IMG/VR virus record: IMGVR_UViG_3300045303_000221
Location: 1-64,000 of that record
DNA from: a virus
DNA length: 64,000 nucleotides
Strand: one strand, 5' to 3'
Made by a program: the position numbers and the translations under genes. The notes below the pieces were generated by a model. The model had not been told where the DNA came from and searched no databases. It was given only the letters and a program-made list of their open reading frames with translations. This document shows positions 2,693-62,298 of the stretch, piece by piece (the first letter of the stretch is position 1; each line of letters begins with the position of its first letter).

Positions 2693-5600
2693 GTGGCGCT
2701 GAACGCCGACCTACAGGTGCTGACGATGCCCGCGGCGACGGGCAACCAGACGTACTCGCTGGCCGCGAACTTCGACCCGAAGGCGATCCTGCTGTGGGCG
2801 ACGCCGCAGACGGCGGACGGCGCGGCCAACTCGATCGCGTTCGGGATGGGGTTCGCCACCTACAAGGGTGGCGCGGTGCAGCAGGCGTACACGGCGTTCC
2901 GGGCGCTGACGGCGGCGGCCAACTCCGACCTGGCGTTCGGCGGCAACACGGACGCCGCGCTGGTGCTGCATACGCAGACGGCGGGCCTGGCGACGCGCGA
3001 CCTGGAGGTCAGGCTGGCCTCGATGCAGACCGGCGCGACGAGCAACGTGGTGCTGAACTGGGTCAACCGGCACACGACGGCCTCGATCCGCGTGTTCATG
3101 CTCGTGCTCGGCGGCTCCGACATCACCGACGCGACCGTCAAGAACGAGTCGCTGACCGGCACGGCCCAGGATCTGCGCGCGGCTGGGTTCCAGCCCGACC
3201 TGATCTTCGCGATGCACAACGGTGCCTACCTGACGGATGTGGCGGACAACTCCGGCTTCGGGTTCGGGTTCGGCTTGAAGGGTGGCACGGGACAGTCGTT
3301 CGGGATGGAGATGTCGGACGGCTCGACCAACGCGCAGATCGCGGCGCAGCAGCGCTCGGACAGGATGATCCTGGCGCAGTACGCAGTGGCGGCGTCATCC
3401 GCGTCGTCGCTCTGCTCCGGCAGGCTGGACGCGGCGGAGAACTGGCCGTCGGACGGCTTCCGGATGCTGTACGACGCGACGATCCCGTTCGACTGCTGGA
3501 TGAGCTACCTGGCGATCAAGACCACAGCGCAGATCGCTATGGGCGTGAACACGGCCCCGACGACTGGCTCTCCCCCGGCCGCGCAGGACAACGCCGCCGG
3601 GTTCGTGCCGAAGGTCGCCCTCGTGCACGGCTGGAGCTTGCCCGCAGGCACCGCGATCGACACGACCTCGACCAGCCTGCTCGGGTACGGGATCGGCGCG
3701 ACGGACGGCACCGACGAGGTGTACGCGGGCTTCACAGACGACGACGCGATCGGCACGATGGTTTCCCGCTCCATCTCGTCGGTCGGCAAGATCCTGCAGA
3801 ACTGGACGCCAGTGACGCCGACCCTGGTGAGTCAGGCGGACTCGTCGTTCGTGGGAAACAACCTGCGGTTGCAGTGGGTGGCGGCCGACACGGTGGCGCG
3901 TCAGTACCAGTGGCTGGTGCTGGGCGACGCGCCAACCTGGACGAGATTCCCGACGACGCCGATCCTGGACAACCTGAATCGGGCGAACACCGGTCCGCCG
4001 CCTGGCCCCGGCTGGACGAGCGGGCTGTTCGGCACGCCCGCGAACGAGCATGGCTGGGTCCTGCAGGGCAACGAGATGCGACCGCAGGGGTCCTATTCGT
4101 CGCCGCAGTTCGCGTCGCAATACTGGTCAGCGCCGATCGCGTCGAACGACCACGAGGTCTACTTCACGGAGGCGTGGGACCCGGCGTTCGCGAACCACGA
4201 GCTATGGGCGCGCGTGTCGAACCCCGGCACGTCCGGCGTGAGCGCCTACCTGGTGACGTTCTATCACAACGGCGGCGTGATCCAGAAGTACGTGTCGGGC
4301 GCGTGGACTGACCTGGCCGGACCGTTCACGACGGCGTTCATCAACTCGCCGACAGGGATGGGGCTGCGCGTCGTCGGCAACACGATCACGGTGTTCGTCC
4401 GCCTGCCGAACGGGCAGTGGCAGCCGATCTCGTCCGCCACCGATTCGACGCTGACCACCGGCACACACATCGGCGTGCTCGGGTACGACAACAATCTGTC
4501 GTACGACGACTTCGGCGGCGGCGCGTACGTCAATCCGCTCTCGGGGACGACGACGCCGATCAGCGTCGGCGGCACGATCACGCCGGGGCCGTCTGCGGAT
4601 GCGTACTCGATCGGCAAGGGGCTGGGCAGCGCCTCCTCGCCGCCGTCGGGGTCGGTCACGCCTGCGGGTGCGCTGTCGATTGCGCCGGTGCCGGTCGAGA
4701 CGGTGATCGATGATTTCAACCGGGCGGACGGACTGGTCACGGCGGGGGCGGGGTCAACGATCTGGGCGGCGACGCGGATCGACGCGGCGACGGCGGTCGC
4801 GATCCGCACGATCAGCAACGCGCTCGGGAACACGATCACCGGCTGGCAGAACGGGTGGACGCAGGCGTTCTACGCGCGGAACGCCGACTTGATCGCGGAC
4901 TGCGTGGTGAAGCCCACGTCGGGCGAGTTCACGCTCTGGTTCGCGTTGCGCGGCGCGGGCGCGACGACGTTCTCCGGTTACGCGCTGGTGCTCGCGATCG
5001 GCGCGACGGACACGTGGACGCTGCGGAGCTACACGAACGGCGTGAATGACGGCACGATCGCGTCGCAGGCGAGCGTGCCGACGCTGGCCGCTGGAGGCTC
5101 GATCTGGGTGCGGAAGCGCGGCACGGCGCTGGAGTTCTACCGGCGGCCGTCCGGCGGCGACTGGACACGGGTGTTCGCGGCGACGAGTTCGCTGTATGAC
5201 CGCTCCGGCTCGTTCGGGATCGAGTTGTCGGACACGACGACGCGATGGGACAACCTGCGCGGCGGGCCGGTCGCCGCGGCCGTGTCGAACCCGCTCTCGG
5301 TGGCGGGCACGGTCACTCCGGCCAGTGTGGTCCGGCGCTCGCTGGCGCGGACGCTGACCGCGACGATCACCCCGGCGGGCGCGCTGCGGCGGACGTGGGC
5401 GCGGACGCTGACGGGCCTCGTCACGCCAGCCGGGGTGACGGTCCGGGTGGGGACGCTGATACGAGCGTTCGCGGGGACGATCACGCCGATCGGTTCGGAG
5501 AAGCGGAGCCTCGCGCGGCGGTTCACGGCGACGCTCACTCCGGCCGGTGCGGCGGTGCGGAGCCTCGCGCGGACGCTGACCGGCCTCGTCACGCCGGGTG

Positions 5601-10780: not shown

Positions 10781-10942
10781 ATGTACGGAGCACTGGCTGA
10801 GGTGCGAGAGGCGCTGGAGACGGCGCTGCGCACGGACAACGTGGTGCCCCTGGTGCTGGCCGTCGGCCGGGCCTACGAGATGGGTGCCACGGACGCGGAC
10901 CTGGCCCTAGTCGAGGACATGCCGTTCGGGGGCGGGTCGTGA
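10781..10942 (+). CDS. Hypothetical protein
   Basis: ATG follows the cassette. Confidence 0.6.
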   Translation: MYGALAEVREALETALRTDNVVPLVLAVGRAYEMGATDADLALVEDMPFGGGS

Positions 10943-11111
10943 CCTGCCTGCGCTGCGGCGCACCGGCGGTCGTCGCGGCGATGCGGACGAACGGGTTCAC
11001 GATCGGCAAGCCGTGGATGGCGTGCTCCGAGCACGCGCCGCGACCGAGCCTGGAGATCGACCTGATCGACCTTCGCGTGCCCGAGCTAGCCGTCCCCGAG
11101 GTGGACGACTG

Positions 11112-39603: not shown

Positions 39604-39688
39604 CTAACGCACGGCGTGTGTTAGGTTCCGTAGTACGCCGGGAGTGCAACCGGCAAAGAACGCCGAGCGGAGGCTCGGCAGAGAGGGG
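39604..39688 (+). promoter_or_regulatory. Repeated cassette with a two-hairpin leader
   Basis: CTAACGCACGGCGTGTGT-TAGGTT, GCCGG/CCGGC and GCCGAGC/GCTCGGC hairpins, AGAGAGG. Confidence 0.7.
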
Positions 39689-48684: not shown

Positions 48685-49605
48685 GTGAGTCCACGGGAGA
48701 ACGCGAAGCCTGAGCTTCGCCAGATCGCCGTTGGCGATCTCACTGTGCTGGCACATATCCAGCGCACCCCTCGTCCGGCCCGCGTCGCGAAGATCGCGCG
48801 TGAGTGGGACGAGAGCAAGGTCGGCATCCTCAAGGTCGCGAAGATCACGACCGGCCGCAACAAGGGCAAGTACCACGTCGTTGACGGCGGTACTCGCTGG
48901 AAGGCGGCCGAGCTTGCCTTCGGTGACGACTACCTGTTCTGGTGCGTCGTCACGGGCGGGACGGAGTTTGAGGCAGCGGAGGACTTCCTCGCGGCCAACA
49001 ACCTGTCGAAGAAGCCGACCGCGTACGAGAACTACATGGTCGGCCTGCGAGCGGACGTGGACTACTGCAACGCGATGGCGAAGGCGTTCAAGGCCGTCGG
49101 TGTCGATGCGGACGAGTCCAGCACGCGCACGTCAGTCGGCTCCATCGCTGCGTGCCGCCGGATCGTGGACCGCGCCGAGGCCGAGGCCAAGCGGACGCTG
49201 AACGGCGACTACTCGCCCGAGGACAAGCAGGATGCGGCGTGGGAGTACGGCTCCGACCGGCTCCGCGACGTGCTGATCCTCACGCGCGAGATGTACCTCG
49301 ACCGGCCGGACGGCGGCCCTCGGGCGCACGATGCCGACATCATCCAGGCGGTCGCCCGCATCTGGGAGATCAACCCAGGCAAGCTCGGTACGAACGGCTG
49401 CCGCGCCCGGTTCGTGGAGCGGATCGCCGTGGTCCGCGTCGCCGAGTGGCGGCACGACGGGCAGAAGGACACCCGGACGTACGGCGGCTCCGAGTCGCGT
49501 GCGACGGCGATGGCCCGGCTGATGTGCATGGAGCACAACAAGCGCCTCAGCCCCGACTCGCCGTGCTTCCTGAAGGGTCCGGCTGACCCCAAGCCGCGCT
49601 ACTAG
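48685..49605 (+). CDS. ParB/Srx-like (DUF6551-type) protein
   Basis: IQR...RVAKIAREWD..KVG.L.V...YHVVDGGTRWKAA...EAAEDF...N; promoter box at 48576-48599. Confidence 0.7.
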   Translation: MSPRENAKPELRQIAVGDLTVLAHIQRTPRPARVAKIAREWDESKVGILKVAKITTGRNKGKYHVVDGGTRWKAAELAFGDDYLFWCVVTGGTEFEAAEDFLAANNLSKKPTAYENYMVGLRADVDYCNAMAKAFKAVGVDADESSTRTSVGSIAACRRIVDRAEAEAKRTLNGDYSPEDKQDAAWEYGSDRLRDVLILTREMYLDRPDGGPRAHDADIIQAVARIWEINPGKLGTNGCRARFVERIAVVRVAEWRHDGQKDTRTYGGSESRATAMARLMCMEHNKRLSPDSPCFLKGPADPKPRY

Positions 49606-50302
49606 CTCGACCTGATCGACCACGGGGGGGCGGCACCGGCGAGACGGGTGTCGCCCCCCTTCTGCGTGGGGCTGCTGGCGCGGACCCGCGGCTCTGCGTA
49701 TCCTGACCGTCGTGAGGCGGCTGACGCAACGGTGGGAAGCGGCGATGTTCTGGACGATCGTGCTCGCGGTCGCCGCCGTCTACGCACGCATCTTCTGGGG
49801 GGCCTGATGCCGGACACGAGGGTGCGCCAGCGCGTCGGACTGCCGCGCGTGTTCGATCCGTGCGTGACCTGTCCGGGCGGTGCGCCGATCGGCGAGGCCC
49901 CGGGCGGGAGCGGCTGCGAGTGCCGGATCGAGCGGTCGGCGATCCTCGCGTCGATCGATCCGTCGTCTCTCGTGAAGTTCTGTCTGAGCGCGGACGGCTA
50001 CCAGACGTGTCCGACCTGGCAGGCTGAGAAGCAGCGCGTGTGGGCACGCCGCGCACTGCTCCCCGACTGACAGCGGACTATGCTGTGTCGCGTGGCGGAC
50101 ACGCCGATCAAGGTGCGCGAGCCTCGGCTCGGAAGGCGGTCGCCACGGATCGGCGACTTCTACACGAACGGCCGGGAGTTGTACGAGGTGCTGATCGTGG
50201 CGGACGGCCGGGCGGCGATGGAGAACTGCCGGACGGAGTTCACCACCGAGTACGACCTGGAGACGGTGCGCCGGATGCGGCTCGTGCGCGTGGGAGGTAC
50301 TG

Positions 50303-56337: not shown

Positions 56338-56413
56338 GCGCGGCTGGGCAAATGGTAAAGCCACCCGGTTCAACCCTCGGGAGACAGTCTGGGTTCGACT
56401 CCCAGGCCGCGCA
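56338..56413 (+). tRNA. Atypical tRNA (8-nt or bulged anticodon loop TTCAACCC; CAA or undetermined)
   Basis: Acceptor GCGCGGC/GCCGCGC, D arm GGC-AAATGGTAAA-GCC, T arm CTGGG-TTCGACT-CCCAG; no encoded CCA. Confidence 0.7.
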
Positions 56414-56414
56414 C

Positions 56415-56618
56415 CTACGGCAGAAGCGGCGGCGGCTGCTGCGTGATGGTGACCGGCGGCACGACGGTCACGGTGGTCACGACCGGGATGGTGAAGATGA
56501 CCTGGCGCGGCTTCGGGGCGCTGATCGTGGTGGCGTAGATGAGGCCGACGCCGACGCCGAACACGAACAGCGCGAGGGCTGCGAACAACGGTGCTGCTAT
56601 GCCGCGCGTCTCATCCAC
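56415..56618 (-). CDS. Small membrane protein (leaderless)
   Basis: TACACT-N6-GTG on the - strand; one TM helix plus a Thr/Val/Pro tail. Confidence 0.55.
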   Translation of the reverse strand: MDETRGIAAPLFAALALFVFGVGVGLIYATTISAPKPRQVIFTIPVVTTVTVVPPVTITQQPPPLLP

Positions 56619-56825: not shown

Positions 56826-56848
56826 TAGCGCACAGCGTGTGTTACACT
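56826..56848 (+). promoter_or_regulatory. Repeated promoter box driving a structured RNA region
   Basis: TAGCGCACAGCGTGTGT-TACACT. Confidence 0.75.
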
Positions 56849-56958
56849 GGGGGAGTACGACGATACCAACGGTCAAGTCGCGAGTGACCAACAGGGGGCT
56901 GAAAGATCCTTCGGGAGCACGGACCACTCCCGCCCCCGATCAACCGCGAAGGTCAGGT

Positions 56959-57039
56959 GTCGCTGGTTCTGACAGGCAGACGCTCCCCCCGACCTCACCG
57001 TGTGGGGAGCGCCGCTGGGTTCGACTCCCGGCAGCGACG
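56959..57039 (+). ncRNA. tRNA-like RNA with an extended anticodon arm
   Basis: Acceptor GTCGCTG/CAGCGAC, D arm TCTG/CAGA, 8-bp CGCTCCCC/GGGGAGCG stem with 15-nt loop, T arm CTGGG-TTCGACT-CCCGG. Confidence 0.65.
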
Positions 57040-57077
57040 TAACGTAGGGCGGCACCAGCCGCAGAGAGGAGCACGAC

Positions 57078-57365
57078 ATGCACGAGGGAACGTTCGTGAC
57101 GCTCACCGACCTGACCCGCCTGTCGATGATCGTGAGCATGGCGGGCCGGTGCGCGAAGGTCGCACGGCAGGTGGACGGCGTTGGCATCGTCTACGGCCAA
57201 GCTCGCTCGGTCGGCGACGAGCGCGGCAACTTCACGCCGAGCGGCGGCAACGTGATCGGCGAGTACCTGCGCGTCACCACGCGCGAGGGGATGGAGGCGT
57301 TCTGGCCGGTCGAGGACCTGGCCGACGAGATCGCCAGCGGCCACTTCGCGGAGTACGACTGGTGA
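57078..57365 (+). CDS. Hypothetical protein
   Basis: Preceded by a GCGGC/GCCGC hairpin plus AGAGAGGAG. Confidence 0.65.
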   Translation: MHEGTFVTLTDLTRLSMIVSMAGRCAKVARQVDGVGIVYGQARSVGDERGNFTPSGGNVIGEYLRVTTREGMEAFWPVEDLADEIASGHFAEYDW

Positions 57366-58470: not shown

Positions 58471-60654
58471 ATGGACCTGACAGCGCAGATCGAGGCGGCT
58501 GCGCAGACCGCCGACCCCAACGAGCGCCGGGCGAAGCTCCGCATCCTGCGAGAGGAAGCGGAGGCGCAACTGGGGACGATCGACACCCACCTCGCCGACG
58601 TGGACTACGAGCGCGAGGCCGCCGTCCACGAGTTCACCGCCAAGGAAGCCGCCGCGCGCCACAACGCCACCCTGCGCGAGGAACTGATCCGACGCGGCAT
58701 CTCCGACGAAGCGAGCATGGACGACGCCGGACTGCTCTCCCACGCCGACCTCGACGCGCTCTCCGAGGAGGGCCTGCTGGAGCACGCACTGGACGTGCTG
58801 TTCCCCGTCACCGAGGGGGCGGGCGGGAAGGTGTTCGGCACCATGATCCACTTCCAGGAGAAGCTGCACCCGCGCGGCCGAGGCGGCAAGTTCGCGAAGA
58901 AGCCCGGCGGTGGCGGCCCCGAGCCGAAGGCCGCGAAGCGCGCCCCGAACGTGCCCGGCAACGGCGGCGGCAAGACCAAGGCGCAGTCGCGCGCCACACC
59001 GGCACCGGCCGCCAGCGCATCACACGCACGACGCGAGGCGGAAGCCGCCCGCGCGAAAGAGTTCAAGCCGGTCGTGCCGGAGGACGTGCCGCAGCGCCCG
59101 AAGGGCCAGAGCGAGGAGAACAAGGCGAAGGTCGCGAACCTCGCAGCACGCATCGGCAAGCGCATCGCCGGAGCCGCCGCAGGCCGCCAGTCCTCACCGG
59201 AGAACACGATCTTCAACGCGAAGGGCAGCGTCTCACAGCACACGCTGCTCCAGTACGTCCGCGACGCCGCCAGCGAGCCGGACACGATGCAGCTTCACTC
59301 GCGCATGGGCCAAGACGGCCGACCCGTGTTCACCGCGGAACGCAAGGCCCTGCACGAGGCGATCATCGACATGGCGCTGCGCGCACCACGCTTCCGCCCA
59401 GACCCGCAGAAGCCCGACAAGAAGCTCCTGGAGTTCGACCCGAACGGCGCATTCCTGGAACCCGACCCCGACGGCCAGCCCAAGACGCTATTCAGCGGCG
59501 GCGGCTACGCAGCGGGCAAGGGCGCAAGCCTCGCCCGACTCGGAGACGACGAGAAGCCACGCAACGCGATCCTGCTCGACCCCGACCGGATCAAGGCGCT
59601 CCTCCCCGAGTTCCACGACGGCCTGGACAGCGACGACCCCGAAGCGAACCTGCACGTCTACCGCGAAGCGTGGGAGATCGCGCAGGAAGTGCAGCGCCGC
59701 GCCCAGGCGAAGAAGCTGAACATGGTCGTGGACGGCATCTCGGACACGACGGTGGAGGAAATCGACTCGCGCGTGCAGAGCTTCCTCGACCACGGCTACA
59801 AGGTGCACATGGTCTACACCGACATCCCCACGGAGGAAGCGATCAGCCGCGCAGCGGGACGCGCAGCCGGGGCGAAGGCCGACAGCGACCGACGCCACAT
59901 CCCCGACACGATCATGCGCGCAGTGCACCGCGACGTGGCCGCGACGATCCCAGCCCTCATGGAGCACATGCAGTCGAAGCCGGAAGGCACCGCAAGGCCA
60001 CGCATCGAGGTGTACGACAACCACCAGGGACAAGCCGACGACGGATCGTTCAACCCGCCGAAGCGAATGGCGCTATTCGACCCGGAGACGGGCCAGTTCA
60101 ACGTGGAGGACGACGCGCTGTGGCAGCGCCTGCAAGCGAAGGGCGACGAGAAGATCCCCGGCCTCGACGCGCCGGAACGACCCGCGCAACCCGCGCCGGT
60201 CAGCGAAGCGGCGGAACCGCCGCAGGAAGGAGCGCCCGCCGTGCAGCCGGACGCACCCACACCGACACCCGCAGACGAGCCGCCCGCACCGACGCCCGGC
60301 CCGAAGACGACGGACGAGATCGTGCAGGCCGGACTGCGCGTGGACGTGCCGTACGAACTGCCCGCCAGCCAGCCACTGAAGTACGAGGAAGGCGAACCGG
60401 CAGCGGAGACGCCGCCGGTGAACGCGAGCGAGATGGCCGACCGCGCGAGCGACGCGCTGGAGCGCAGCGGCATGACGAACGACCCGGACAGCAGCGCCGC
60501 GACCGGCCTGTTCCAGTACGACGCGCACGACGAGGCGGATGCCGTGAATCAAGCTCCGAAGGATGATTCACAGCCGGAAGCGAAAACGCCTGCAAATCCG
60601 GCACCGGTGAATACACCGAAGCCACCTTCGCCCACCGGCGGGACGCAGGGCTAG
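58471..60654 (+). CDS. Zeta-toxin-like P-loop kinase with N-terminal HPR tag (leaderless)
   Basis: TAGACT-N7-ATG; FQEKLHPRGRGGKF; GGGYAAGKG Walker A, LLDPDRIK, NMVVDG, GYKVHMVY...AI.RA..R...R.IP, YDN. Confidence 0.8.
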   Translation: MDLTAQIEAAAQTADPNERRAKLRILREEAEAQLGTIDTHLADVDYEREAAVHEFTAKEAAARHNATLREELIRRGISDEASMDDAGLLSHADLDALSEEGLLEHALDVLFPVTEGAGGKVFGTMIHFQEKLHPRGRGGKFAKKPGGGGPEPKAAKRAPNVPGNGGGKTKAQSRATPAPAASASHARREAEAARAKEFKPVVPEDVPQRPKGQSEENKAKVANLAARIGKRIAGAAAGRQSSPENTIFNAKGSVSQHTLLQYVRDAASEPDTMQLHSRMGQDGRPVFTAERKALHEAIIDMALRAPRFRPDPQKPDKKLLEFDPNGAFLEPDPDGQPKTLFSGGGYAAGKGASLARLGDDEKPRNAILLDPDRIKALLPEFHDGLDSDDPEANLHVYREAWEIAQEVQRRAQAKKLNMVVDGISDTTVEEIDSRVQSFLDHGYKVHMVYTDIPTEEAISRAAGRAAGAKADSDRRHIPDTIMRAVHRDVAATIPALMEHMQSKPEGTARPRIEVYDNHQGQADDGSFNPPKRMALFDPETGQFNVEDDALWQRLQAKGDEKIPGLDAPERPAQPAPVSEAAEPPQEGAPAVQPDAPTPTPADEPPAPTPGPKTTDEIVQAGLRVDVPYELPASQPLKYEEGEPAAETPPVNASEMADRASDALERSGMTNDPDSSAATGLFQYDAHDEADAVNQAPKDDSQPEAKTPANPAPVNTPKPPSPTGGTQG

Positions 60655-60685
60655 CCGAAATGATTCACGCGAAAGAGGTAGCCGC

Positions 60686-61024
60686 ATGGCGATGACCGTC
60701 CGTCGGATCGTGCTGGACGACGTGGTGGGGCCGCAGAAGGTGCAGATGGCACCGGAGGGCTTCCCGATGACCGCCACCTACTGGAGGGACCCGGACGACG
60801 AGGGGATGACCGTCTCGGCGCTGGTGCTGTACGCGGCGGCGGACGAGGCCGACTCGACCGCGGAGTGGACGGTGACGGTGGTGCGGGCCGGGGACGTGGT
60901 GCCGGACGACGGCAGCTACGTCGCGTCCACGCTGGCCGCCGACGGCCGCGTCCGGCACGTGTTCGTGACGCCGCCGGACTGGGACATCGACGGCACCGAC
61001 CCGCCGTCGTCCGACGCCGCGTAG
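60686..61024 (+). CDS. Hypothetical protein
   Basis: AGAGG RBS; YVAST...VRHVF. Confidence 0.6.
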   Translation: MAMTVRRIVLDDVVGPQKVQMAPEGFPMTATYWRDPDDEGMTVSALVLYAAADEADSTAEWTVTVVRAGDVVPDDGSYVASTLAADGRVRHVFVTPPDWDIDGTDPPSSDAA

Positions 61025-61056
61025 ACCGGAGCGCACATCGCGTGTTAGGGTGGCCG

Positions 61057-61312
61057 CAGACCGAGCGGTGGGGAGACGCTGGCTCGGCAGACGGTCACCC
61101 CACGTGGCCTTTGCACACGGACTCCCCCTGAGATACTGCCCCCCGAGCAGCCCCAATACGGTCGCGGCGTCCGACCCCCCGTAGGTCGCCGCGACCGGGG
61201 TGGTGGCCTAAGATGGAGGCCGGACCCACCTCCGGGTTGCCTCCCGAGTTGCACGCTAGGGTCCACGTGGGGCTGCGGCGTTTCACGCGAACGTCGCAGT
61301 CCCACCCTGTCT
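61057..61312 (+). ncRNA. Putative ~260-nt multi-stem non-coding RNA
   Basis: Own promoter box (GCGCACATCGCGTGT-TAGGGT, 61031-61051); nested stems CCCCACGTGG/CCACGTGGGG, CGGTCGCGGCG/CGCCGCGACCG, GGCCT/AGGCC, CTGCGGCGTTT/GAACGTCGCAG. Confidence 0.6.
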
Positions 61313-61340
61313 GACGGTTGAGTGCGTAGAGTGCTCAAGG

Positions 61341-61631
61341 GTGAGCACCCCTCTGCCACTGCTCGCGTTGGACAGCACCGTCAGCGTGGTCACGACGATC
61401 GTGGCGGTCGTGTCGGCGCTGTCGGCGATCGTGCTGGGCTGGCTGAAGTGGGGCCGGGAGGACGCCGGGCAGACCGCTTCGACGGCGAAGACGCTGGTCG
61501 AGACGATGCGCGATGTGAGCGCTGAGGTGAAGGCGCAGCGGGACGAGTGCATGGTGGATCGTGAAGCGCTGCGCGTAAAGGCGCAGAATCTGGAGGCCGA
61601 GCTTGACCGGCGGGAGGCCGAGCGTGGCTGA
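61341..61631 (+). CDS. Membrane-anchored coiled-coil protein (possible lysis accessory)
   Basis: TAGAGT-N8-GTG; one TM helix plus coiled coil. Confidence 0.6.
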
Positions 61632-62298
61632 GCAGCCCGAGGTCACCGAGGTGATCGAGCGAGAGGACGACGACGAGTCTGCGCTGGTGGGAGCGCTGGA
61701 CGGGATGGCGGCCGAGATCCGGACGCTGCACTGGCGCTCGCGGCTGTCGCTGATCGTGATGGGCGTGCTGACGCTGTTGACGATCCTGGCGTTCGGGACG
61801 GCGGCGCTGTCGCTGCGGCAGACGGCGAACGCGGCGAAGGACCGGGCGTCGCAGGCGAAGGTGGAGGCGCAGGCGGCGAACGCCTTGCTGGTGCAGTGCC
61901 TGACGAAGCAGACGCAGGCGGAGATTCAGGCGTGCCTCGGGGTGATGCCGGGTGCTCCGGGCGAGCCGGGCGTGGAGGGCGCGGCGGGCGTGCCGGGAGT
62001 GCCGGGGACGCCGGGCGAGCAGGGCCAGCCGGGCGCGATCGGGAAGCAGGGGCCGCCGGGCGCGACGGGGCCTGCGGGTCCGGCCGGGCCGACGGGGAAG
62101 GGAGGGCCGCGAGGCGCTACGGGATCGCGAGGGGCGACGGGTCCGACGGGGCAGACCGGCCCGCAGGGGACGCCTGGGCCGCCGGGTCGGCGTGGGCCAG
62201 CGGGGCCGCAGGGACGGCCGGGCGCTCCGGCGCAGTTCCCGCTGACGATGACGTGCCGCTCGCCGGATGGCCGCACGTTCACGTGTAACCCCGCGTGA
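61624..62298 (+). CDS. Membrane-anchored collagen-like protein
   Basis: TM helix, Gly-X-Y run, C-terminal Cys pair. Confidence 0.75.

Follow-up and report, generated by a model that had tools for sequence, protein, structure and literature searches.

To our knowledge, the regulatory RNAs described so far from actinobacterial phages are very few. The 6C small RNA (sRNA) counts dnaB and secretion genes among its targets in mycobacteria. The PR'-6S RNA-tR' region of phage lambda and the put RNA of HK022 have a layout in which a promoter is followed by a structured non-coding transcript of ~200 nucleotides (nt), a hairpin and lysis-type late genes. For 6C, binding of G-rich ribosome-binding sites (RBS) by the C-rich loops needs no chaperone; such loops are common in actinobacterial sRNAs, and C-loop pairing with G-rich RNA is thought to be general for the sRNAs of high-GC bacteria (PMC6486639). 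Some actinophages, namely the non-RepA extrachromosomal Cluster A mycobacteriophages, need a transcribed non-coding region for prophage replication (PMC7157519). Here an intergenic stretch from an uncultured soil phage of high-GC bacteria was analysed. It lies at 61025-61340 of a 64,000-nt window of DNA (IMG/VR record IMGVR_UViG_3300045303_000221) and, judged by comparison with a homologous locus on a second phage contig (L002), it is a real conserved element at the RNA level. The reading we favour, tentatively, is that of a promoter-driven regulatory RNA whose C-run loops would pair with exposed G-rich RNA, as those of 6C do.

The window covers the initial 64 kb of a viral record of 87,892 bases, which is classed as linear and estimated to be 74% complete. 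The record has a G+C content of ~70%, and nearly all of its genes are carried on the + strand. By the periodicity of third-position GC (GC3), no non-coding gap of the genome is longer than 61025-61340; the flat stretch at 36.5-37.0 kb exceeds it in length but belongs to a collagen-like gene. GC3 is 0.9-1.0 in the flanking genes and 0.6-0.8 in all three phases over 61031-61340. A first-pass annotation, made from the letters alone, had proposed at this place a highly structured RNA that follows a copy of a promoter box and has no credible open reading frame (ORF). The promoter box, stems and runs of six C that it named were all found in place when the coordinates were re-derived, and its view of the coding potential was borne out by the GC3 collapse and by reading frames that are not shared with L002. 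The promoter and the predicted transcript are as follows.

61033-61051, + strand: promoter box GCACATCGCGTGTTAGGGT, a member of a dispersed promoter family, with the -10 hexamer TAGGGT at 61046-61051
61059-61305, + strand: predicted non-coding RNA of ~247 nt, from the probable transcription start to the end of the 3' hairpin, proposed on the absence of periodicity, the unconserved frames, the fold z-score and the homologue

The promoter box belongs to a dispersed module of four parts, in which a box (GCAC..GTG..TAnnnT) is followed by a hairpin, a ribosome-binding box (AGAGAGG) and a start codon. The hairpin of the module begins ~7 nt after the -10 hexamer, the start codon lies within ~50 nt, and the TAG of the box often doubles as the stop codon of the preceding gene. 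The module is present at 26 sites in the window, from 233 to 61051. GCACATCGCGTGTTAGGGT fits this list of 26 copies, and it is also one of the 14 matches found on the + strand (vs 2 on the - strand) with a regular expression for one subtype of the box. The promoter copy claimed earlier is a genuine member of the family and is kept in L002, where a box-like sequence with the -10 TACGTT occupies the same position. By the spacing from the -10 hexamer, transcription would start at ~61058-61059.

The 5' end of the predicted RNA resembles the usual leader of this phage. Its first hairpin is one version of the generic hairpin seen in the leaders behind most of the phage's promoters, and a unit near 39604 has nearly identical arms. 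The sequence after the hairpin, CAGACGG, is a degenerate copy of the AGAGAGG box and stands in place of CAGAGAGG. No conserved start codon or ORF after the 5' hairpin was found by the GC3 scan or by comparison of frames with L002. With its promoter box and generic hairpin kept, its ribosome-binding box degenerate and no usable ORF behind them, the element looks, by its sequence, derived from an ordinary gene leader that no longer leads a gene. The same 5' end with its decayed box might be expected of a decayed gene, a small ORF (e.g. one of 26 codons that starts at GTG 61104 or one of 44 codons that starts at GTG 61050) or a neutral spacer, and a conserved block does read AHGLP in one frame in both phages. 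We consider this explanation extremely unlikely. The frame shifts between the conserved blocks, with a length difference of 13 nt, and no pair of frames stands out between the phages (local scores 24-55). In L002 the matching frame lacks a start codon 3' of the predicted transcription start, GTG 61050 falls inside the -10 hexamer, GC3 lacks periodicity, and the compensatory changes in hairpins H4 and H2, described below, are unexpected in a neutral spacer.

Folding was compared with that of shuffled sequences. The + strand gave a z-score of -3.75 over 316 nt (0/100 shuffles as stable) and of -3.42 over the 254 nt from the predicted start (0/200 shuffles as stable), against -0.49 for the - strand, in agreement with the + strand structure proposed in the first-pass annotation. 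Two hairpins are robust in the ensemble, H4 and the 3' hairpin, both with a probability of 0.97, and the remaining fold is degenerate. The predicted parts of the RNA are listed here in 5' to 3' order; the structure of minimum free energy is abbreviated MFE.

61061-66 / 61082-87, + strand: 5' hairpin H1, CCGAGC/GCUCGG, with a 15-nt loop that contains GGGGAGACGC; ensemble probability 0.43
61070-61127, + strand: conserved 5' domain, in which an irregular stem ends in the variable hairpin H2; found in the MFE of both phages
61070-75 / 61122-27, + strand: P1, GGGGAG / CUCCCC; probability at least 0.71 in the window
61079-81 / 61118-20, + strand: P2, CUG / CGG
61087-91 / 61110-14, + strand: P3, GCAG(A) / (U)UUGC
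61093-98 / 61104-09, + strand: H2, GGUCAC / GUGGCC
61111-61127, + strand: 17-nt block UUGCACACGGACUCCCC, identical in both phages
61135-61150, + strand: hairpin H3, CUGC/GCAG, loop CCCCCC(GA), with the C6 run 61139-44 inside the conserved block ACUGCCCCCCG
61159-69 / 61187-97, + strand: hairpin H4, 11-bp G+C stem CGGUCGCGGCG / CGCCGCGACCG, with the C6 run 61175-80 in its loop; probability 0.97
61198-61262, + strand: lineage-specific 3' module with the stems GGCCU/AGGCC and GACCC/GGGUU, absent from L002
61263-72, + strand: CCACGUGGGG, the 3' arm of a 10-bp long-range stem, just 3' of the module
61267-82 / 61290-305, + strand: 3' hairpin of 16 bp, GUGGGGCUGCGGCGUU / AACGUCGCAGUCCCAC, terminator-like; the inner 10 bp (61273-82 / 61290-99) have a probability of 0.97

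The earlier structural proposals were followed to different extents by these predictions. The 11-bp stem CGGTCGCGGCG/CGCCGCGACCG corresponds to H4 and is the best defined of them. The 5' hairpin is present and its arms are identical in L002, but besides being a variant of the generic leader hairpin it competes with the conserved GGGGAG/CUCCCC pairing; H1 and the 5' domain are either mutually exclusive or joined in a pseudoknot that holds both. The multibranch domain had been drawn as closed by a 10-bp long-range stem, CCCCACGTGG/CCACGTGGGG, at 61098-107 / 61263-272. That stem exists, with a probability of 0.29-0.37, and a fold in which it is enforced lies 0.7 kcal/mol above the MFE. The pairings inside the domain have probabilities of 0.61 (CTG/CAG), 0.37 (GGCCT/AGGCC) and 0.58 (GACCC/GGGTT). 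Within the modelled ensemble, several folds of nearly equal energy compete, and the multibranch arrangement with the 10-bp stem at its base is one of them. This arrangement is not conserved, as L002 has neither the 3' partner of the stem nor the 61198-61262 module.

L002 is a 3,930-nt soil-metagenome contig (Ga0070715_10006713) on which a zeta-like protein is 65% identical to that of the window, and it is the only syntenic locus found. The homologous RNA, of ~208 nt, lies at 2968-3175. The spacers of the two phages are ~51% identical over the aligned columns. Identical in both are CCGAGC, GGGGAGACGC, GCUCGG, the 17-nt block UUGCACACGGACUCCCC and the 11-nt block ACUGCCCCCCG; no identical run in the region is longer than the 17 nt of the first block, a length on a par with the longest such runs, 15 and 16 nt, of the two small genes next to it. 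Since MAFFT aligned the two RNAs in a structurally wrong way, base pairs were counted by script on explicit coordinates.

The helices are kept through substitutions. P1 is invariant between the phages and extends to 9 bp in L002, with a probability of 0.99. From the window to L002, a U-G pair in P2 becomes C-G and an A-U pair in P3 becomes G-U. H2 is found in L002 at the same place with 6 bp, five of its pairs being changed on both sides, and has a larger cap. The H3 stem CUGC/GCAG is invariant, with a loop of five to six C in both phages. In H4, seven pairs are unchanged, three show compensatory changes, one goes from G-C to G-U and none is broken, and all seven substitutions in the arms keep pairing. 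When seven substitutions were placed at random in the 22 arm positions of H4, all 11 pairs remained intact in 3.5e-4 of the trials. The register of H4 was set by sequence similarity (15/22 arm bases identical), and a covariance-model alignment agrees with it. The counterpart of the 3' hairpin has 7 bp in L002 vs 16 bp in the window. A covariance model built on the single window sequence (R1) detects L002 in two pieces, of 17.5 and 12.4 bits, and gave no credible match in the other sequences scanned. The search for homologues that the first-pass annotation had suggested thus yielded one relative with conserved blocks and compensatory changes, although blastn against phage records gave none.

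Variation among near-identical strains was examined in Logan contigs from four other soil studies. Only two differences were seen over 61036-61340: 61037 A>G, within the promoter box, and 61220 C>T, by which a G-C pair of GGCCU/AGGCC becomes G-U. The pieces that cover the next gene (61341-61516) show 3 to 8 differences each. This variation lends weak support to constraint on the RNA; the depths are 2-5, and differences seen in a single contig may be errors.

The perfect inverted repeats, the palindrome CCACGTGG and the conserved blocks, which could be operators, might also be read as a DNA-level site, with blocks and repeats acting as protein-binding or packaging signals on double-stranded DNA. 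We judge this very unlikely. The excess stability is confined to the + strand, a promoter lies directly upstream in both phages, and the CCACGTGG palindromes are not kept in L002. The conserved helices hold three G-U pairs in each phage, which become A-C mismatches if the other strand is read, and changes pass through G-U at P2, P3, the second pair of H4 and the strain variant 61220. The G-U pairs and the strand-specific fold thus fit an RNA read from the + strand.

The C runs of the element stand out from the composition of the genome. Nine runs of six or more C (C6) are seen on the + strand vs ~54 expected from composition, and 11 G6 runs vs ~186; a similar depletion of G runs is reported for mycobacterial genomes (PMC6486639). 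Two of the nine C6 runs, 61139-44 and 61175-80, lie 36 nt apart in the loops of H3 and H4. Their predicted probability of being unpaired is 0.72 in the window and 0.81 in L002 for H3, and 0.87 and 0.64, respectively, for H4. The core at 61121-61180 has 30 C and 13 G and is the fourth most C-over-G window of 60 nt on a + strand that is otherwise G-rich; this bias is kept in L002.

Known RNA families were searched for. Rfam 15 at gathering thresholds gave 0 matches over the whole window (riboswitches, ribozymes, RNase P and signal recognition particle (SRP) RNA included), and ARAGORN found no transfer RNA (tRNA) or transfer-messenger RNA (tmRNA) in the stretch, in line with the absence of tmRNA, RNase P and SRP signatures noted at first pass. 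A permissive Rfam scan of 60900-61450 returned sub-threshold matches only: Scr3202 at 20.1 bits (gathering 52), 6C at 18.7 bits (gathering 47; E 5.1) and F6 at 15.5 bits (gathering 46). These are actinobacterial sRNAs, and all were matched through H4. L002 gave no match to the 6C model even at E up to 10. By these searches the element is not a member of the 6C family, since the model score failed in both phages, the element has three times the length of the model and it carries an extra conserved 5' domain. The 6C comparison made earlier therefore stands as an apt functional analogy, with C-run loops that are conserved and predicted unpaired in both phages, but not as a family assignment, the score of the 6C model not being reached. 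Nothing points to the ribozyme or the sponge that had also been suggested.

In the reading we favour, transcription from the phage promoter at ~61058-61059 would give a non-coding RNA of ~247 nt composed of the conserved 5' domain, the C-rich and G-poor core (H3, H4), the lineage-specific module and the strong 3' hairpin. The loops of H3 and H4, with five to six unpaired cytosines each, would be the working surface. They would pair with exposed G-rich RNA, typically in the G-rich ribosome-binding regions of mRNAs from the host or the phage, whose translation or stability would be lowered by the pairing. We infer the transcript and its ends, the action in trans and any target, and the status of a stand-alone RNA is likewise presumed. 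This account appears possible rather than probable, and several observations weigh against it. The comparative evidence rests on two sequences, those of the window and L002. Public sequencing runs that hold the phage sequence include no RNA run. No long antisense match to the element was found within the genome. Predicted duplexes with 88 translation-start regions of the phage are no better than those with 600 random windows (Mann-Whitney p 0.88-1.0), and the usual AGAGAGG box of the phage is not complementary to the C runs. With 247 nt and a conserved 5' domain, the RNA is larger and more complex than sRNAs of the 6C type. The 16-bp 3' hairpin is followed by CCUGUCUGACGG and not by a U tract, and a terminator scan of 60600-61700 gave 0 sites for an intrinsic terminator. 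Finally, in L002 a gene for a 129-amino-acid (aa) protein begins, with an ATG and an RBS, 19 nt after the last hairpin.

The idea that the C loops mirror the phage's own RBS was set aside as unsupported, no excess of pairing being seen at translation starts. The best predicted phage partner for both C loops is UCGGGGGCGGG, ahead of GTG 10939 (10914-10944), at -24.3 and -24.8 kcal/mol; this GTG overlaps the stop codon at the end of the gene before it. One top site out of 88 is not significant by itself, and the pairing is a lead only.

The genes around the element bear on the other explanations. Upstream, the order is portal, a 1054-aa protein without a family match, a zeta-like protein and a DUF7352 protein. 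The 96-aa protein that follows the element gave a weak phrog_1009 match, and 3' of its gene are a collagen-like tail-fibre-type protein and then a giant protein that starts with peptidoglycan-binding domains. The nearest features are these.

58471-60654, + strand: zeta-toxin-type kinase domain protein, 727 aa
60686-61024, + strand: DUF7352 protein, 112 aa
61327-61332, + strand: -10-like TAGAGT, 8 nt before GTG 61341, without a ribosome-binding site
61341-61631, + strand: 96-aa protein (start GTG 61341) that combines a membrane helix at its N terminus with a coiled coil; recognized as an ORF with coding periodicity

In L002 the zeta-like gene is followed by DUF7352 (Pfam E 2.7e-10), a 45-codon membrane ORF, the non-coding stretch at ~2947-3188 and membrane genes. 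The first of the latter encodes the 129-aa multi-pass membrane protein (no Pfam or PHROG match), and the next is the orthologue of the 96-aa membrane/coiled-coil protein. The extra membrane ORFs that flank the RNA in L002, at 2809-2946 (45 codons) and 3189-3578 (129 aa), are both missing from the window.

This arrangement brings in the main rival to a regulatory RNA acting in trans, a cis-acting leader or attenuator, i.e. a structured 5' untranslated region of the downstream membrane-protein (lysis-like) genes. In such a leader the C-rich core would load Rho, or the hairpins would stop RNA polymerase, and the downstream genes would need read-through by factor-dependent or RNA-mediated antitermination. 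In both phages small membrane-protein genes follow directly on the element, and the L002 orthologue of the 96-aa protein has weak matches to Rz-like spanins. Rho loading sites typically have a C-rich, G-poor composition such as that of the untranslated core, whose bias is kept in L002. U tracts are missing from both hairpins, and the 5' end is the standard leader module with a decayed ribosome-binding box. The 129-aa gene of L002 leaves no space for a promoter between the 3' hairpin and its RBS; as a gene with an RBS starts 19 nt after the hairpin, the RNA in L002 is, by this gene arrangement, a 5' leader as well, whatever else it may be. The next gene of the window differs: it has no RBS, and TAGAGT lies 8 nt upstream of its GTG; thus the 96-aa gene probably has its own (near-)leaderless promoter. 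The 3' hairpin, at 16 bp, is much stronger in the window than in L002, the C loops have no conserved partner in cis, and the immediate downstream gene is not the same in the two phages. A leader or attenuator as the function of the stretch is, on this evidence, somewhat doubtful. A regulatory RNA and a leader are not exclusive of each other.

GTG 61341 itself sits within a small hairpin, GCUCA-AGGG-UGAGC.

An account that joins action in cis and in trans is improbable in our estimation. Here the phage RNA, made during infection from its own promoter, would mimic host regulators of the 6C type; its C loops would capture G-rich RBSs of the host, and host translation would be reprogrammed. The 5' domain would gate the termination of the RNA itself, the GGGGAG/CUCCCC switch or pseudoknot deciding on termination ahead of the lysis-like genes.

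A structured non-coding RNA driven by a promoter, as seen here too, could be part of an RNA-primed replication origin of the phage or prophage. RNA-primed initiation has been proposed for the non-RepA Cluster A mycobacteriophages and for ColE1 RNA II. The setting argues against this for the element, and we regard an origin as hardly credible. Known origins of the mycobacteriophage kind adjoin parABS, whereas the 87.9-kb record, at 74% completeness, showed no ParB_N (PF02195) or ParA/CbiA (PF01656) domain. The element is surrounded by head, tail and lysis-like genes, not by replication genes. GC skew is positive throughout the record, on both sides of the element, with a local dip only at 58-60 kb and no switch of skew. 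The core of the RNA is C-rich rather than G-rich, and C-rich RNA is unfavourable for a persistent RNA-DNA hybrid.

Further relatives of the element were sought at the level of sequence, pattern and neighbouring protein. The lineage is poorly known and the phage is remote from cultured phages; among these, the best match of its portal protein has 24.5% identity and comes from Methanoculleus (archaeal) viruses. In 50,697 phage records, neither blastn in distant mode with the element and its flanks nor tblastn with the DUF7352 protein gave a match. In a set of 5.8 billion proteins, the DUF7352 protein retrieved only itself. Single flanking proteins used as queries for related loci in IMG/VR retrieved nothing, the exact H4 pattern had no match in IMG/VR, and no paralogues of the element were found within its own genome. 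The 727-aa zeta-like protein has relatives of 65-37% identity on many uncultured contigs, some of them >100 kb. With an alignment of nine zeta-like relatives as query, six JGI metagenome loci and one IMG/VR locus were obtained. In three loci with a zeta-like gene (L003, L005 and L008) both DUF7352 and the RNA are missing. L003 and L005 share the promoter module, and their zeta-like proteins are 57-64% identical over the best matched segment. Among the relatives examined, the DUF7352 gene and the RNA accompany the zeta-like gene only in the closest one. Model R1 found nothing on these three loci, and its sole match in the 127-kb record behind L008 has 11.2 bits and lies in coding DNA.

Pattern searches were also carried out in IMG/VR and in GTDB genomes. 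The two-block pattern CACGGACTCCCC..CTGCCCCCCG had 0 matches in IMG/VR. Its five GTDB matches (L009-L013) were rejected as chance: four look coding and one is an unrelated intergenic site, and the flanking motifs are not shared. A single IMG/VR match to a 16-nt block, in a gene of a low-GC phage (L015), was likewise put down to chance. The 5'-domain pattern gave 0 matches in GTDB genomes, as did the alignments of the zeta-like and membrane proteins. Against IMG/VR, the membrane-protein alignment matched one distant phage (L014), without a spacer upstream.

Some other features of the window and of related loci were observed in the course of the analysis. The promoter module is complete in L003 (1735-1800 and 3215-3280), and at least its box is present in L005 (805-835). 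A second long promoter-driven leader, of ~220 nt, lies at 56826-57080 before ATG 57078. It has a C6 run (56985) paired with GGGGAG, a T-arm-like hairpin GGUUCGACUCCC, and the generic hairpin with AGAGAGG at the 3' end. Taken as 56855-57080, this leader is unrelated to the element (3.5 bits with model R1), and its stability is not unusual (z 0.29). The sole call of tRNA type made by ARAGORN in the window is a tRNA-like gene of undetermined identity at 56338-56415, with a four-base anticodon (caac). The clearest terminator-like site noticed is a G7...C6 hairpin followed by TTCT at 49624-49660, just 3' of a gene that ends at 49605.

The element is an uncatalogued RNA candidate for Rfam, a good one, although two sequences do not yet make it a discovery. 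That C-rich loops act as seeds in the sRNAs of high-GC bacteria is a rule founded mainly on 6C, and if the favoured reading is true, the element would extend this rule to phages. Such an RNA at the entry to a block of lysis-like genes would be a concrete, mutable object for the study of late or lysis timing or of interference with host translation.

How the locus compares with the described systems can now be stated. With the lambda late leader and the HK022 put RNA the element shares the layout. It is unrelated to them in sequence and in Rfam and lacks a U-tract terminator; a factor like Q or N was not identified, and the downstream gene of the window seems to own a promoter. Like the origins of the non-RepA Cluster A mycobacteriophages (PMC7157519), it would be a promoter-driven intergenic non-coding RNA of an actinophage. 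Those RNA origins adjoin parABS and serve prophage replication, whereas the element is placed among structural and lysis-like genes. Scr3202 (RF02833) and F6 (RF01791) have in common with it a G+C hairpin with a C-rich loop; their scores are far below gathering, and only one hairpin is matched. The closest likeness in form is to 6C (B11, Rfam RF01066), with its high-GC hairpins showing six-cytosine runs in the loops, and the H4 loop context CCGACCCCCCG matches the consensus loop of that family. The differences from 6C are the length (~247 nt, and ~208 nt in L002, vs 75 positions in the Rfam model), the conserved 5' domain and 17-nt block, and the location on a phage; the second hairpin of the element that cmscan aligned to 6C is one without a C loop. 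The 6C-like arrangement of two adjacent hairpins with C-run loops is nevertheless found in both phages, with CCCCCC and CCCCCC in the window and CCCCCC and CCCCC in L002, and thus amounts to a likeness of design, not of homology.

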